Below are positions 1,158 to 63,809 of a DNA stretch of 64,000 bases, in pieces. Source of the stretch: a virus. How positions within the stretch are numbered: position 1 is the first letter of the stretch; each line of letters starts with the position of its first letter. Below the pieces are notes generated by a model that saw only the letters and a program-made list of their open reading frames with translations, ran no database searches and was not told the origin of the DNA. The position numbers and the translations under genes are program-made. Location: IMG/VR virus record IMGVR_UViG_3300029199_000002. The stretch is one strand, 5' to 3'.

Positions 1158-1517
1158 ATGGGCAAACATACACTCTACGAACTGGCTACTGATTTCGAAC
1201 TGTTCCAAGAGTTTGCAGATCCCAACAACACATGGGCTGAAGAACTATTCGACTCTACCCCTGTTTCCGAGAAGCTGCGCCATCTGATCTTCACCTTCGG
1301 AGTGGATGAAGAGGGTCGTAACGAACTGGCTGCCAACGTCCGGGATGGCACCTACGTCTGCGAAAACCCGACCTTGCAAGAATGCCGTCAAGATGGGATC
1401 GAAGTGCTGACCGATATGGCGTTCTACGACGCCTTGGCAACCGCAACCGAAACTATCTACGGCAATGTTTCCGACAGCGTTGCCGCGCTTATCCGAGAAG
1501 ACTACGGGATTTACTGA
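1158..1517 (+). CDS. acidic hypothetical protein (119 aa)
   Basis: 3' part of ORF 867..1517; ATG at 1158 follows GAAGGAG; D/E-rich. Confidence 0.65.
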   Translation: MGKHTLYELATDFELFQEFADPNNTWAEELFDSTPVSEKLRHLIFTFGVDEEGRNELAANVRDGTYVCENPTLQECRQDGIEVLTDMAFYDALATATETIYGNVSDSVAALIREDYGIY

Positions 1518-2740
1518 CGCTTCGGCGGCTCAGCCACGATCTCCATCAAGCGATCCCACCACTTCTTATAGGCGGTCGCTTGCTCATCCAGGTAGAGGTG
1601 ACGGTCGTACACTCCTTGCATACCCTTTAGGGAGTGACCGAGCATCATTTCAGCGACAACCACGTCGGTTAGCGAAGAGAAATTGGTCCGCGCTGTCTTC
1701 CGCAGATCGTGCATAGACCAGTGCTTCATCTTCACGCCATAACTGCGCTCCGCTTCGTGCATCACCATCCCAGGAAGGCTGATGACAGTGCCATTAGCCA
1801 TTCTGACCGGCTTCAGGGCGCCGGTCATCAGAAGGCTCTTGGAGCGGGAGATACCCATCAATTCCTGCAGCATAGGGACCACTTCAGGGATTAAAGGCCT
1901 GACGTGATCCCTCTTCACCTTCTTCCTTACCTTGTTTTTCGCGACAGGTATGGTCCAGGTCATGGCCTCGAAGTCTAGATCCTCCAAAGGGTTCACATCT
2001 CTCAGCTCGCCGTTTCGGCAGCCGAAGAACAGACAGAGCCTTATAAAGAGTGTGTTACGCCTCAACGTCGGCGCCGTACCGGCGCAGTGCCAGACCAACC
2101 TAATCTCTTCCTCGGCCAGCGCTCGGCCAGCGTCACCACTGTCCTCTATCTGCAGGTCGTCTCGAGTGTTCAGCAGCGCGAGAGGCTGGGAGTTGATAAG
2201 CCCCCGCTTGTACGCCCACAAGTGAACTTGCTTTGAGGTGTTCAGGATTCTCTCTGCTATAGAGGGGGCCTTCGCTTTGACCCCTCCCAGAACAGCCATC
2301 CACTGCCCTCCTGTGGTCTCGTCTACGGGGAGGTCACCAAGCGTCGGGAAGACGTGGATCTCGAAGGAGCGGAGGTAGGCCTCTGCGTCCTGGTAATTGC
2401 CGAGGGAGTAGCCCTCGTGCCACATCATGTACAGGCTCCGGTTTGTTGGAACACCCGAAGCGTTCGATTTTTCAACCTTGCGTCGAACCCTCGGGTCAAC
2501 ACCCTGCTCAAGCAGCGCCTTCAGCCGAAGGTGCTCGGTGCGGGCCTCCTTTAGAGACATTAAAGGGTAAGTACCTAGGTCGAGCCTGGCAGGCTTTCCA
2601 AGGAACCGGTACCTGTACTGAAAGACAATCCTTCCGCCGGCGGAAACTCGGATACCCAAACCCCCTGCGTCAGCTTTCTCGAGAGTGCTGTCGCGTGGCT
2701 TTTTATGGTTGGCTTTTAACCAAGAATCTGACAGTGCCAT
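1511..2740 (-). CDS. int: tyrosine integrase, P4-like with N-terminal arm-binding domain
   Basis: GLGIRV...FQYRYRF.GK..RLDLGTYPLMSLKEAR arm domain; catalytic R (GCRNGEL), HDLRKT, LGH, Y (GVYD); likely start MALSDSWL at 2740. Confidence 0.95.
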   Translation of the reverse strand: MALSDSWLKANHKKPRDSTLEKADAGGLGIRVSAGGRIVFQYRYRFLGKPARLDLGTYPLMSLKEARTEHLRLKALLEQGVDPRVRRKVEKSNASGVPTNRSLYMMWHEGYSLGNYQDAEAYLRSFEIHVFPTLGDLPVDETTGGQWMAVLGGVKAKAPSIAERILNTSKQVHLWAYKRGLINSQPLALLNTRDDLQIEDSGDAGRALAEEEIRLVWHCAGTAPTLRRNTLFIRLCLFFGCRNGELRDVNPLEDLDFEAMTWTIPVAKNKVRKKVKRDHVRPLIPEVVPMLQELMGISRSKSLLMTGALKPVRMANGTVISLPGMVMHEAERSYGVKMKHWSMHDLRKTARTNFSSLTDVVVAEMMLGHSLKGMQGVYDRHLYLDEQATAYKKWWDRLMEIVAEPPKRQ

Positions 2741-2792
2741 GCCTACTTCCCTTGTGTACATATCCGGAGGGCGATAGTGACACACAAAAAAC

Positions 2793-3215: not shown

Positions 3216-3482
3216 TTGTCGCCGTCTGCCGCACTTCTGAGTAGTCTGTCAAGCACTTTTCGCTTGGAACTCGTTTCTCTGATCACCCAGGAGGGGGGGT
3301 TGTGTGTAAACGAAATAGCAGAAAAAAGTGGGACCTCCCAAGCCACTGCATCTCGTCAGCTGATCATCCTGCGAAACGCAGGTGCAATTAAGGTCGAGAA
3401 GCAAAACAACAAGAGGATTTACAGCGTAGACGAACAGGTCGTTAAGCTGGTGGAGGCAGCGAGGAGGATTGCAGAGGGCTAG
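3216..3482 (+). CDS. ArsR/SmtB-family winged-HTH transcriptional regulator
   Basis: RLELVSLI....LCVNEIAEKSGTSQATASRQLIILRNAGAI..EK...RIYS pattern; TTG start. Confidence 0.8.
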   Translation: MSPSAALLSSLSSTFRLELVSLITQEGGLCVNEIAEKSGTSQATASRQLIILRNAGAIKVEKQNNKRIYSVDEQVVKLVEAARRIAEG

Positions 3483-55967: not shown

Positions 55968-56051
55968 GGGCTGTATTTACAGGTTTACAGGTTTGACTAC
56001 GATTATTGGACACTCCGTAGTTAGAAGCAACTGGTTATTCTTTGACCAGAC

Positions 56052-56110: not shown

Positions 56111-56377
56111 ATGAAAAAAGTATTTTTGGTCCTTTCTATCGCACTGACCCTAGCGGGCTGCGATTCCCTGGAAAGTCGAGTAAAACCCTTTGTTCACGAA
56201 GACGCCGAAATCAATGGACTTAGGGAAGGGCGGGACGGGGCGGTATGCGGGGAAGTTAGGAGACCCGGTGCGCTATGGCACCGGGTTGTTGTTGTAGACG
56301 AAGCCGCCCACTACTCAATTGACGTTATCACCTACGACCATCCGAGCGCCGAGGTCTACAAGAAATACTGCCTCTGA
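56111..56377 (+). CDS. moron lipoprotein (88 aa), opposite strand
   Basis: MKK + hydrophobic stretch + LAGC lipobox; VCGEV motif and C-terminal Cys. Confidence 0.8.
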   Translation: MKKVFLVLSIALTLAGCDSLESRVKPFVHEDAEINGLREGRDGAVCGEVRRPGALWHRVVVVDEAAHYSIDVITYDHPSAEVYKKYCL

Positions 56378-58126
56378 CTACCAGCCGGTGCGGTGTACAG
56401 ACTCCCTGCCCTTCCCTGCCGCAGACCCCACCTTTACCTTGCCCGTGATCGGCGGCGCGCCAATGACCACGCTCAGGCCCAGGTCTTCGATAACCATCGC
56501 GGCGATGCTGCAGTAGTTTAGAGAGTGCACCCAGTGGTCCGTGTCAGAGGTCTTTGTGAACCTCTCCACCATGTCTCCGTCCGCCGCACGGGCGCGGATT
56601 TTCTTCGTGGTCTTCAGGTGTTCGAAGATCTCCGACGTGATCTCCTCACGCATCGGGTAGTGGATCTCCCCTGCGTTGTGCTTGTTCAGCAGCACCGAGA
56701 GGGTCTTGGTACGGTCAGCGTTGATCACCATGCCGTCCGCCTTCTCATCGATAGGCAGGATTCCGCTGACCTTGTTCACGTAGACTACGGCGCGGATACC
56801 TAGCCGGGCACCGACCAGGCTGTTGACCAGGGTGATATCCGGGCCGGCGTCGATGCAGAGCATCGCCATGCGGTAGTAGTCGAAGCGTGCCAGCACCTGG
56901 CCGGTGGCCGGCTCCTCTCTGGTGTTCCGGATCTTCTCGGCCCATACCACGTGCCAGTGCTTACCTACCTTGGCCTTTACTGTCAGGTGGCAGGTCTTGC
57001 CTACGTCCATACCTCCAATGGTCTGGCAGGTAACCGCCCATTGCTGGAAAATCCACAAGTCCACGTCAGATAAGCGCTGGCGGTGCTCTTTTGTCACCGT
57101 GAAGCTGTTCTCAGCATCGCTGTAGGGCAGCCCTATGACGAAGTTGTAGAAGTCGCTGCGCAGCGGGTAGTCGCCCATCTGCTTGATGATTGCCGGCGGA
57201 GTGTTGTACGTAGGCACGTCCCAGGGGTACACCTGATAGCTGTGGTCCCATACGTCTGGCCGCTTTGGTACCCACATCCTGCGCTCTGGATTCAGTAGAG
57301 ACTGCTGCAGGTCGTTGCCGCAGTCGGGGCACTTGATGTAAGCGTCCTGGATGCGGTGTCTAGTGTCAGAGACGTCTTCCCTTGTGAACTTGGTGATGCT
57401 GTCGTCGAACCCAGGCACGATGAAGTCATGGTCGAAGTCTGGCAGCACCCATTTGTGGCAGCAGCGGCACTTGACCATGTAGTAGCGCTGGTCGCCTGCA
57501 TTGAAGCCGGCATCCACCCCATAGTCCTCTACCGTTGGAGTAGAGAAACGCATCCGCATACCCCGGTTGCCCATCTCGTCAACCAAGCTTGCGTGTCGTA
57601 GACGGGAGTTCAACTTGCCGAGGATGACCTCGTTAGAGAAGTCCACCTCATCGCTGATGATGACCTCGGCGGGGACCGAGATAGCGCTGTTCGCACCGAA
57701 CGAGCCGGTGATGTAGAGGGTACAAGTGCCGATCTTCTTCTGGCTGGCAGAGTTCTGGGCCTTCTGGACCAGTCCACTGTAGAAGTCTGACTGATCAATT
57801 GCGCTGTCGAACCGGTCCTTGGAGAACGGCATGGCCATGTCACGGGTCGGCAGCGTGAAGATGATCCTGATGTGGCTCATGGTGGCGCCCATGGCGATGG
57901 TCTTCTGGACCATCACCTCTGACAGGCCTACCTGTGAGCACTTGCGAACGTCGATCCGAGAGCGAGTGTCGCGGATGATCTCCTGCTGAAATTCGTGGTC
58001 CTTGAATGTGTAGGGCTTGCCATTGACCCTGCCGTATTTGAGGACGACCTTGTCCAGCTCCCGCATGCCTTCCTCTCGATTGAGTTGCATTCGTAACCGG
58101 CTGGCGGCGGAAGCAGATTCAGACAA
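56378..58126 (-). CDS. terL: terminase large subunit (lambda GpA-like)
   Basis: KCSQVGLSE Walker A, ISDEVD, FSTPT, CxxC..CxxC zinc finger, GMDVG, CIDAG, DHW.H. Confidence 0.9.
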   Translation of the reverse strand: MSESASAASRLRMQLNREEGMRELDKVVLKYGRVNGKPYTFKDHEFQQEIIRDTRSRIDVRKCSQVGLSEVMVQKTIAMGATMSHIRIIFTLPTRDMAMPFSKDRFDSAIDQSDFYSGLVQKAQNSASQKKIGTCTLYITGSFGANSAISVPAEVIISDEVDFSNEVILGKLNSRLRHASLVDEMGNRGMRMRFSTPTVEDYGVDAGFNAGDQRYYMVKCRCCHKWVLPDFDHDFIVPGFDDSITKFTREDVSDTRHRIQDAYIKCPDCGNDLQQSLLNPERRMWVPKRPDVWDHSYQVYPWDVPTYNTPPAIIKQMGDYPLRSDFYNFVIGLPYSDAENSFTVTKEHRQRLSDVDLWIFQQWAVTCQTIGGMDVGKTCHLTVKAKVGKHWHVVWAEKIRNTREEPATGQVLARFDYYRMAMLCIDAGPDITLVNSLVGARLGIRAVVYVNKVSGILPIDEKADGMVINADRTKTLSVLLNKHNAGEIHYPMREEITSEIFEHLKTTKKIRARAADGDMVERFTKTSDTDHWVHSLNYCSIAAMVIEDLGLSVVIGAPPITGKVKVGSAAGKGRESVHRTGW

Positions 58127-58136
58127 GTCCCTCTCC

Positions 58137-58433
58137 TCAGATTAGCTTGCAGTTTGCGCGATTGTCACAGGTAGTCGATTGACACAGTGTTCTGGCAGCT
58201 TTGGCCAAGCTGCTTGGACCCTTGGGGTGTTTCACAGAGTCCACCCGAACAGGTATCTCCACCTTGAAAGCCCACTCCAGGGCCGTGATGAACCCCAGGA
58301 CCTGGTTAACCAGATAATTGGCGACCCAGTTCTTGAAGCCCTCTCCCGCCGGACACTTGCTTACGTCAGTGGTCCAAGTTCCCTCAGCCGAAACACGAAT
58401 CGGCACTAAGCCGAACAACAGGTATCTCTCCAT
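58137..58433 (-). CDS. hypothetical protein (98 aa) behind an SOS-box promoter
   Basis: ATG after GAAGTGG; directly upstream of terL. Confidence 0.55.
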   Translation of the reverse strand: MERYLLFGLVPIRVSAEGTWTTDVSKCPAGEGFKNWVANYLVNQVLGFITALEWAFKVEIPVRVDSVKHPKGPSSLAKAARTLCQSTTCDNRANCKLI

Positions 58434-58470
58434 TTTCCACTTCTCGCACTCGTTATTTTCACAGGGAACA

Positions 58471-58486
58471 CTGTATTTTTATACAG
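58471..58486. promoter_or_regulatory. LexA (SOS) box CTGTATTTTTATACAG overlapping the -10 of a - strand promoter TTGTCA-18-TATAAA (58507-58478)
   Basis: exact CTGT-N8-ACAG match with AT-rich spacer. Confidence 0.7.
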
Positions 58487-58711
58487 CAGTCCGTCAACCC
58501 CTGACAATCGCTTTCAGCTTCCATCCACCTAGCATATATGTAGTAGTAGAGTGCCACCTGCCGCGGCGGTCGCTGATCTTGCCTGTATTTTTGACGCCTG
58601 TCATACGCCGAAAAGCAGGTAAGTCCCCACAAATCTATCGGGATTGCTGTAAATACGGCGAAGATGGGCTTTTCTCCGCTTGTCGGATTAATCCTTTTTC
58701 AGCTCGCTCGG

Positions 58712-59254
58712 TCACACTTCTCCGGTCTCAATCCTTTCCAGCTCCAATAGCACTGCCTCTTGCTGCTCCCTCGTCATGTGGGACTCCATTACTCGACGCA
58801 GCGCCTCTTCCTGCTTCTGGATGCGGTCCAGGGTGTAAATCTTGGGCAGGTCGCGAACCATCACCTGGGTCACTTTTAGCGAAAGGTTTAGTGCGTCCTT
58901 CAGGGGGATTTCGTAGTCGTCGGCGTTGATTGTCTTGGTGCCGTCAGTGTTCACGATGCGGCGAAGTACGGTGTCCACAAGCTGAATCTGCTGCTTGAAT
59001 GTCATCAGGACACTGGCCTCGAGGCCGGAGATTTTGGCCACCATGTCACGGCGGGTCGTCGGGCTCATGGCCTCAACGATCTTTTCCTGGACCGCGTAGG
59101 ACAGCATGTCCTGGCGGAGCGCGCCGATGACGTCTTCCACCGCCATTCGCAGTGTCGGGTCGTCTGACAGCGCGTCTCCGCGAGGAGTCACGGTCAGTGG
59201 TGCGTAAGGTAGGCCGCTGCCCTCGTCGCTATTACCTGTGCGGTCGCCCCTCAT
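58712..59254 (-). CDS. putative terminase small subunit (180 aa)
   Basis: helical protein upstream of terL; ATG at 59254 overlaps stop of upstream peptide. Confidence 0.55.
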   Translation of the reverse strand: MRGDRTGNSDEGSGLPYAPLTVTPRGDALSDDPTLRMAVEDVIGALRQDMLSYAVQEKIVEAMSPTTRRDMVAKISGLEASVLMTFKQQIQLVDTVLRRIVNTDGTKTINADDYEIPLKDALNLSLKVTQVMVRDLPKIYTLDRIQKQEEALRRVMESHMTREQQEAVLLELERIETGEV

Positions 59255-59393: not shown

Positions 59394-59675
59394 TCAGGCT
59401 TCGACGCGGATCTGGTCCGGGTTGGCGCTGTAGGTCAGCACGGTGCGGGCCGGAACTTCTACTTCGGTTGCGACGACGCCGCCCTTGATGGTGCGCGCTG
59501 CGTACTGGCGAGCACGGAACTTTCCGAAGCCACGCAGGGTGAGGTGGCCGCGATCGAATGCCAGCTCACTGATGCCAGCCAGGACGGATTCCACAGCGGT
59601 CTTGGCAGCCACTTTGGAGATGTCGGCGTGGGTGGCGACGAAGTTGATCAGGTCCTGCTTGGAGGCGTTACTCAT
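59394..59675 (-). CDS. HU/IHF-like DNA-bending protein
   Basis: SKQDLI..VA..ADISK..A..AVE.V, LTLRGFGKF, R, VPAR. Confidence 0.9.
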   Translation of the reverse strand: MSNASKQDLINFVATHADISKVAAKTAVESVLAGISELAFDRGHLTLRGFGKFRARQYAARTIKGGVVATEVEVPARTVLTYSANPDQIRVEA

Positions 59676-63044: not shown

Positions 63045-63809
63045 ATGAAAGTCACTCCCTATTTGTTCAAGCAAACAACCGTCCGCGTATATACCGACAG
63101 CGAGACCAACAAGTTCTATTTCCTAGGCCGCGACATCGCTGACCTGCTTGGATACCGCGATGCAGAGCCGATGACCCGAAAGCTGGGCGGCGAGGGATTC
63201 ATCCTCCGAAACATCCACGGCATCTGCACCCGCGAGGTGGTGCTGTTGGACGAGTACGGCCTCAACCTCAGTGTCTTTGGTGCCAAGATGGAAAAAGCCC
63301 GGGCCGTCCGGCGATGGGTACAAGATGAATTGCTGCCAAAGGTGAAGGAGCAGCATACCCTCGCCAATCGCCTAGCCAGCATCGGCGGGATCAGGCCCAA
63401 GGTCGGTAGTTCATCAGCCGGCTCAACCTCCGTCGAAGAGTTCAGTGAGCACACCCGCGGACGATTCTTCACTGTCGAGCAGTTCGCCGCAGCCATTGGA
63501 CTCAGTGGTGCCCGTGTGATCGACCTCCGCAATCAGGTGGCCATCGCCTACATGGCCTTGGAGCGCTCAGGAGGCCCCTACCCGCCCTCTGCCAACGACG
63601 ACGGCAAGGTTCTATACGAGGTCGAGTTCCTGCCCGTCCTGAGAGCTGCCCTCGCCTTCAGCCCTCGAAAGCCAGCAGCTGGTTATGGAAGAGCCATCGA
63701 CCACCTCGTTCGCAGAGGTAGGCTGGGCGTGGCTGATGCCGTCACGAGCAGCGAGTTGAAGGACTTCCTCACTGGCGACTTGAGCAGCGTAGGGGATGAG
63801 CAGCTGTGA
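63045..63809 (+). CDS. Bro-N domain protein (antirepressor-like)
   Basis: Y.F....VRV......YF...DIA.LLGY.D, LLDEYGL..SVF...ME.A.A.RRWV..ELLP. Confidence 0.8.
   Translation: MKVTPYLFKQTTVRVYTDSETNKFYFLGRDIADLLGYRDAEPMTRKLGGEGFILRNIHGICTREVVLLDEYGLNLSVFGAKMEKARAVRRWVQDELLPKVKEQHTLANRLASIGGIRPKVGSSSAGSTSVEEFSEHTRGRFFTVEQFAAAIGLSGARVIDLRNQVAIAYMALERSGGPYPPSANDDGKVLYEVEFLPVLRAALAFSPRKPAAGYGRAIDHLVRRGRLGVADAVTSSELKDFLTGDLSSVGDEQL

Follow-up and report, generated by a model that had tools for sequence, protein, structure and literature searches.

A predicted LexA operator ahead of a conserved small gene next to terL in a temperate Pseudomonas-type phage

Does the SOS response of the host reach directly into this phage genome and, if so, what is done by the gene through which it would act? 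The question is raised by a single palindrome with the geometry of a LexA (SOS) box, which lies in front of a small gene next to terL, the gene for the large terminase subunit. The phage genes known to be gated by LexA serve as antirepressors or in accessory functions and lie away from the virion genes, and the position of this one next to the packaging genes is therefore of some interest.

The window, that is, the whole stretch of 64,000 nucleotides analysed here, comes from a 69.8-kb viral contig rated 80% complete. The presence of a tyrosine integrase with an arm-binding domain (1511-2785, minus strand) indicates that the phage is temperate. Its TerL is 58-62% identical to those of the Pseudomonas phages Lana, PMBT3 and UAntarctica, and from these terL relatives we infer a Pseudomonas-like host. 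The group of large temperate phages to which it belongs is poorly known; how these phages are induced has not been described, and no cleavable repressor has been found in them. Indeed, searches for Peptidase_S24 and HTH_3 gave no match in this record (80% complete) nor did five relatives, 50-94% complete, yield an S24 peptidase, in agreement with an earlier reading of the window from its sequence alone (the sequence-only reading), in which no cleavable CI was visible.

A small gene family fixed ahead of terL

The small gene encodes a protein of 98 amino acids (58433-58137, minus strand) and lies directly before terL (56378-58126, minus strand; TTG start at 58126), whose product is a large terminase subunit of the GpA_ATPase type. 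In the window, the stop codon of the small gene is 10 nt ahead of the TTG start of terL. The two genes overlap by 4 nt in four lineages (L026, L032, L033 and L034), and a 206-nt spacer lies between them in L025. Since there is no terminator in the 10-nt gap, the earlier suggestion that a promoter of the small gene would also read into terL holds good.

In every context that was read, the order of genes is the same: a gene for an HU-like protein, a gene for a protein of ~177 residues, a gap of 150-280 bp, the small gene and terL. The HU/IHF-like DNA-binding protein (59394-59675, minus strand) is encoded by the first gene of this module and keeps the same position in relatives. The gene that follows (58712-59254, minus strand) has a reading frame open to 59347, corresponding to 211 aa; relatives start later, and the frame in the window probably does so too, giving ~173-184 aa as in the relatives. 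This ~177-aa protein is 70-84% identical across relatives, which makes it as conserved as TerL, and is without a family assignment. A protein language model gave a weak lead to the small terminase of T5, and it is its position that makes this protein the likely small terminase, for which it is a better candidate than the product of the small gene.

The small ORF had been taken for an orphan. This was first suggested in our searches too, as a word-based search returned one copy only, 91% identical, and tblastn against phage records was empty. The relatives' loci and an HMM search overturned this view. In the loci of relatives, which were fetched through the ~177-aa protein, 70-aa homologues lie directly before terL, and the profile search against 1.8 billion representative proteins found 11 clusters of 66-98 aa. 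The small gene therefore belongs to a new conserved family of proteins of 66-98 aa, most relatives having 66-76 aa, that is fixed directly upstream of terL. Residues M1, F7, G8, W20, G30, L46 and E53 are invariant in the family, and its members are mostly acidic, with a pI of 4.1-5.1 in 11 of 16. Profile searches of Pfam, PHROG and PDB returned no family match for any of these 16 members. A protein-atlas search with the ORF gave sub-threshold matches only, and two scans of species-representative genomes revealed no relatives of either the ~177-aa protein or the small ORF. No match to TerS families or to a DNA-binding N-terminal domain was obtained, and the small protein has no recognisable DNA-binding motif.

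Across relatives, the small protein is 32-50% identical compared to 77-94% for TerL. This is particularly clear in L025, where TerL is 94% identical and the small protein 50%. The small protein evidently evolves fast and, as these sequence comparisons suggest, is swapped independently of TerL. In the more distant Lana-type phages, the place before terL is taken by small ORFs unrelated to the family, and those of Lana and UAntarctica show no detectable homology to it. With all 16 members aligned, the family proved too diverse to be scanned for patterns. AlphaFold2 models of the small protein, built from 8 and 16 sequences, contain three short strands and one long helix at a pLDDT of 48 and 53, respectively, which is too poor to base a fold comparison on. 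The prediction of a complex between TerL and the small protein, which was run without controls, gave a score of 0.00, a result that carries no weight in either direction.

The putative LexA box and promoter across lineages

The gap between the ~177-aa gene and the small gene is non-coding, measures 278 bp in the window (58434-58711, minus strand) and has a counterpart at the matching place in all relatives. Within it lies the palindrome CTGTATTTTTATACAG (58471-58486, plus-strand reading; CTGTATAAAAATACAG on the minus strand), which is the sole exact CTGT-N8-ACAG in the whole 69.8-kb phage record. The box starts 53 nt ahead of the ATG of the 98-aa ORF and its 3' edge lies 37 nt ahead of it. The box matches the published P. 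aeruginosa LexA consensus, CTGTATAAATATACAG (PMC13114513), at 15 of 16 positions.

The sequence-only reading had placed a perfect CTGT-N8-ACAG over a TATAAA hexamer, and sequence and coordinates are as described (58471-58486 for the box, 58483-58478 for TATAAA). The promoter that it had assigned to this hexamer, TTGTCA-18-TATAAA (58478-58507, minus strand; TTGTCA at 58507-58502), stands in part: both hexamers are present and the box overlaps the promoter, but TTGTCA is located in a 10-bp duplication that is missing from the close relative L003. A promoter scan pointed to a second promoter-like pair, TTGACG-16-TACAGT (58470-58497, minus strand), whose spacer and -10 are covered by the box and which L003 retains in full. 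Indeed, a 28-nt run that is identical between the window and L003 corresponds exactly to 58470-58497, within a gap that is 86% identical overall. In L046-48, the TTGACG -35 has decayed to TTGTCT; TTGTCA and the 10-bp duplication are retained there. Both promoters are consensus predictions, and with either hexamer pair the spacer and the -10 lie under the box.

A loose match to CTGT-N8-ACAG is expected about once per window (1 observed vs 0.98 expected in 64 kb; at least one in 70 of 100 shuffles) and thus proves nothing by itself. The strict form CTGTAY-N4-RTACAG with an all-A/T core, to which the box conforms, was however found in 0 of 100 shuffles. The relatives extend this comparison. An exact CTGT-N8-ACAG is present 36-87 nt before the ATG of the small gene in six divergent lineages, whose surrounding DNA is no longer alignable. 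The box reads CTGTATAAAAATACAG, starting 53 nt before the ATG, in the window, L003 and L046-49, which all have the same box sequence; CTGTACATGCGTACAG (start 42 nt before the ATG) in L025; CTGTACATCTATACAG (38 nt) in L027-29; CTGTACGTTTATACAG (36 nt) in L030-31; CTGTCTTTTTATACAG (87 nt) in L041; and CTGTATATTCATACAG (44 nt) in L052-54, where the small protein is most divergent. In L014, which is sister to L041, the box occurs as a CTGG variant. The outer CTGTA/TACAG bases are conserved between the boxes and the cores and flanks vary, which, as far as an alignment can tell, is the pattern expected of a selected protein-binding site. The 51 related loci contain 13 exact boxes, 12 of which fall in the gap before the small gene, and a hand estimate, in which the chance of a box is ~0.005 per gap of ~300 nt, gives a probability of ~1e-10 for boxes in six of 13 lineages.

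The site therefore has a CTGT-N8-ACAG palindrome, the extended consensus with an A/T-rich core, a predicted overlap with a promoter and an orthologous position in relatives. On these grounds, we read the palindrome as a genuine, selected operator of the host LexA that would gate the promoter of a unit formed by the small gene and terL, with a probability of about 0.75. In a lysogen, a LexA dimer on the box would cover the spacer and the -10 and would keep this sigma-70-type promoter shut. Following DNA damage, RecA would become active and LexA would cleave itself, so that the small protein would be made. The terminase would be made too, because only 10 nt and no terminator lie between the two genes.

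Control by LexA is not universal in the family. Seven lineages (L004-08/11, L009-12/37/38, L013/34-36/40, L026, L032, L033 and L055-56) have the gene and the gap but no box, which indicates that LexA control is dispensable for the function of the gene. In a tree of the 5' part of terL, four of the box lineages form one supported clade (98/97) together with the box-less L004-12, suggesting that the box is old in this clade and was lost once; L041 falls in another clade. In five whole relatives (L004, L005, L006, L007 and L009, ~380 kb), no CTGT-N8-ACAG was found at all, where ~5-6 would be expected by chance. As these records are closely related, this may be taken as a hint of motif avoidance only.

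For the boxes of L025, L027-31 and L052, a simple scan found no good -35/-10 pair in the surrounding sequence, and TGgTAG motifs upstream of them were read by eye. The motif concerned, GGTGGTAG / GGTGGATGG, recurs upstream of LexA boxes, 12-30 nt before them in L027, L030 and L052, and occurs at ~58534-58544 in the window. It reads in L027 and L030 as an extended -10 (TGgTAGnnT) 18 nt after TTGAC(G/T), and with such a reading the box would fall at the start of transcription.

The gap contains further conserved elements. Its longest block identical with L003 measures 32 nt (58572-58603, minus strand) and contains the inverted repeat TGAC-N4-GTCA. A putative upstream promoter, ATGACA-17-CAAGAT (58576-58604, minus strand), lies within this block, and the box-less L004 and L009 have a counterpart, GTGACA-17-CATCAT, at the matching place. 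Right after the stop codon of the ~177-aa gene there is a short palindrome, GGATTAATCC (58682-58691), which is conserved across lineages, including L004-L012 (GGCTTAATGCC in L009). A structured RNA in the gap was considered and rejected (fold z = -0.42, no Rfam match). In the box-less L004-L012, a conserved palindrome, ATGTC-AAAAA-GACAT, is found ~60-75 nt before the ATG of the small gene, right after a CATAAT hexamer that resembles a -10. It occupies the position that the LexA box takes in other lineages and may serve another regulator as its operator. A PrtR-type operator was rejected for the box-less gaps, as the published operator-like sequence ATAAATGCATTTAC (PMC12066065) differs from the palindrome found there.

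Possible roles of the small protein

As the small protein is mostly acidic, has no recognisable DNA-binding motif and folds poorly alone, it probably acts by binding another protein. A role with the packaging machinery is our tentative preference and is somewhat more likely than that of an antirepressor. Like small terminases and accessory genes that are coupled to terL, the small gene lies directly before terL, with overlapping stop and start codons in four lineages. Unlike TerS, however, its product is very small and mostly acidic, has no TerS-family homology and is not predicted to adopt a DNA-binding fold. Should the small protein turn out to help packaging, DNA packaging would in this phage be wired directly to the SOS state of the host. 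To our knowledge, no true phage has been described in which this is so, and we found no example in the literature.

The sequence-only reading had proposed that the small protein is the SOS trigger of induction, a LexA-gated antirepressor that inactivates a non-cleavable repressor. Such a repressor would most plausibly be an ArsR-type winged-helix regulator of 88 aa (3216-3482, plus strand; HTH_5, E 1.2e-7), whose gene adjoins the integrase and which we consider a candidate both for the prophage repressor and for the protein that binds a family of 12-bp palindromes. The genome-wide operator family seen in the first reading is indeed there: CTGTA-NN-TACAG occurs in 10 exact and 9 one-mismatch copies spanning 655-62997 (e.g. 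5326, 12837, 17212, 22407, 52534, 55971, 59775, 60463 and 62986), most of them at divergent promoters or 3-45 nt ahead of a start codon. Two copies (3139 and 3169) lie just upstream of the ArsR-type gene. CTGTAYTTACAGGTTTACAG is an extension common to the copies at 55971 and 59775, and relatives L004-L014 and L027-29 have the family as well.

Several observations would fit an antirepressor. The genome has no other LexA input, no S24 peptidase was found in the record or in the five relatives, and LexA control is old, being retained in six lineages. A small, mostly acidic protein is what one would expect of a protein binder. Its rapid divergence, independent of TerL, is paralleled by the ArsR-type regulator, which in relatives G001 and G005 is 45-46% identical with a conserved recognition helix. 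The small gene lies ~55 kb from the integrase/ArsR region and thus outside the immunity region, which is also the case for gfoA, tum and antC (PMC3121763). There is also a more conventional antirepressor candidate, a Bro-N / Ant-like protein of 254 aa (63045-63809, plus strand). An exact 12-mer is found 47 nt before its start (from the end of the box to the ATG), and the gene may itself be repressed by the regulator of the phage, which would make it a poor primary trigger.

On the other side, the small gene in every case sits immediately before terL, whose start it overlaps in four lineages, the seven lineages without any LexA box that keep the gene include whole proviruses, and the small protein has no similarity to the antirepressor, DinI and Tum families in Pfam and PHROGs. 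Moreover, the ArsR-type protein is presumed to be the repressor and the 12-mer binder, and in a record that is 80% complete the true repressor could be missing. We therefore regard an antirepressor-like trigger of induction as possible but rather unlikely. Slightly more doubtful is the idea in its most extended form, in which the family would be a new class of SOS-gated antirepressors that inactivate a non-cleavable ArsR-type repressor of ~20 promoters acting via the 12-bp palindrome, and would serve as the induction trigger of temperate Pseudomonas-type phages of ~70-83 kb without an S24 repressor, with box-less lineages having rewired the trigger to other signals. Were the small protein the induction trigger, it would represent a new antirepressor family together with a new ArsR-type switch. 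What probability remains goes to some other accessory role that is timed by the SOS response.

Comparison with known systems helps to place the locus. Prophage antirepressor genes under LexA control are those for GfoA/GftA/GfhA of the Gifsy phages of Salmonella, Tum of coliphage 186 and AntC of N15 (PMC3121763). The locus described here resembles them in being a small temperate-phage gene outside the immunity region, with a predicted promoter overlapped by a single canonical LexA box, and no cleavable CI-type repressor was found. It differs in that its product has no sequence similarity to these antirepressors, that the gene is fixed before terL and often translationally coupled to it, that about half of the lineages are without the box, and that the candidate repressor is of the ArsR rather than the CI/DicA type. 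In P. putida KT2440, the prophage gene PP3901 is described as being under LexA1/LexA2 control and as required for other prophage genes to be expressed upon damage (Abella et al. 2007, cited in PMC4595014). By this description, PP3901 is likewise a Pseudomonas-type prophage gene whose control by LexA, here predicted, ties prophage expression to the SOS response. In GIL01, a tectivirus of Bacillus thuringiensis, the host LexA itself represses phage promoters (PMC4551915, PMC6182141), and the same direct repression, rather than one via a cleavable phage repressor, is predicted here. GIL01, however, has several boxes of the Gram-positive type at an early promoter and involves the helper proteins gp7 and gp6, whereas here a single box of the gammaproteobacterial type precedes a packaging-module unit. 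Since LexA-gated phage genes themselves are already known, what is new is the small family locked to terL and its link to a predicted LexA operator.

The 12-bp palindromes and other readings of the site

The 12-mers also bear on the site itself, as their half-sites, CTGTA/TACAG, are those of the LexA box, with a core of 2 nt instead of 6 nt. The palindrome before the small gene might accordingly be a form of the phage's own 12-bp operator with a wider spacer, recognised by a phage regulator and not by LexA. The 12-mers lie at gene junctions, one of them in the same gap (58647-58658, CTGTAAATACGG, with one mismatch; its position is kept in L009, L010 and L012), and box-bearing L027-29 have the 12-mer family as well. 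A spacer of 6 nt rather than 2 nt, however, puts the half-sites on a different helical phase, and no other copy with 6-nt spacing exists in the genome. The exact LexA geometry has always been kept in the six lineages, and there are 12-mer-rich relatives without any 16-mers. Taken together, we consider a phage operator at this site to be very improbable and retain the reading of a host LexA operator. Least likely of all, to the point of being nearly negligible, is a palindrome that arose by chance in AT-rich intergenic DNA and regulates nothing, a reading for which only the loose pattern, expected about once per 64 kb, could speak, against the failure of the shuffles to yield the strict pattern, the return of exact boxes at the same place in six lineages with non-aligning flanks and the concentration of 12 of the 13 boxes in the gap.

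Two of the 12-mer copies (55971 and 56082) are located in the promoter region of a small gene on the far side of terL. This gene (56112-56377, plus strand) encodes a small lipoprotein, with a signal peptide followed by Cys, is convergent with terL and abuts its stop codon. No minus-strand terminator past terL was found at the lipoprotein gene, and read-through into the portal gene is thus possible. The lipoprotein gene has a weak PHROG match to Cor superinfection exclusion (E 2e-4). In relatives, different genes on the opposite strand are found after terL, and the spot therefore looks like a moron slot.
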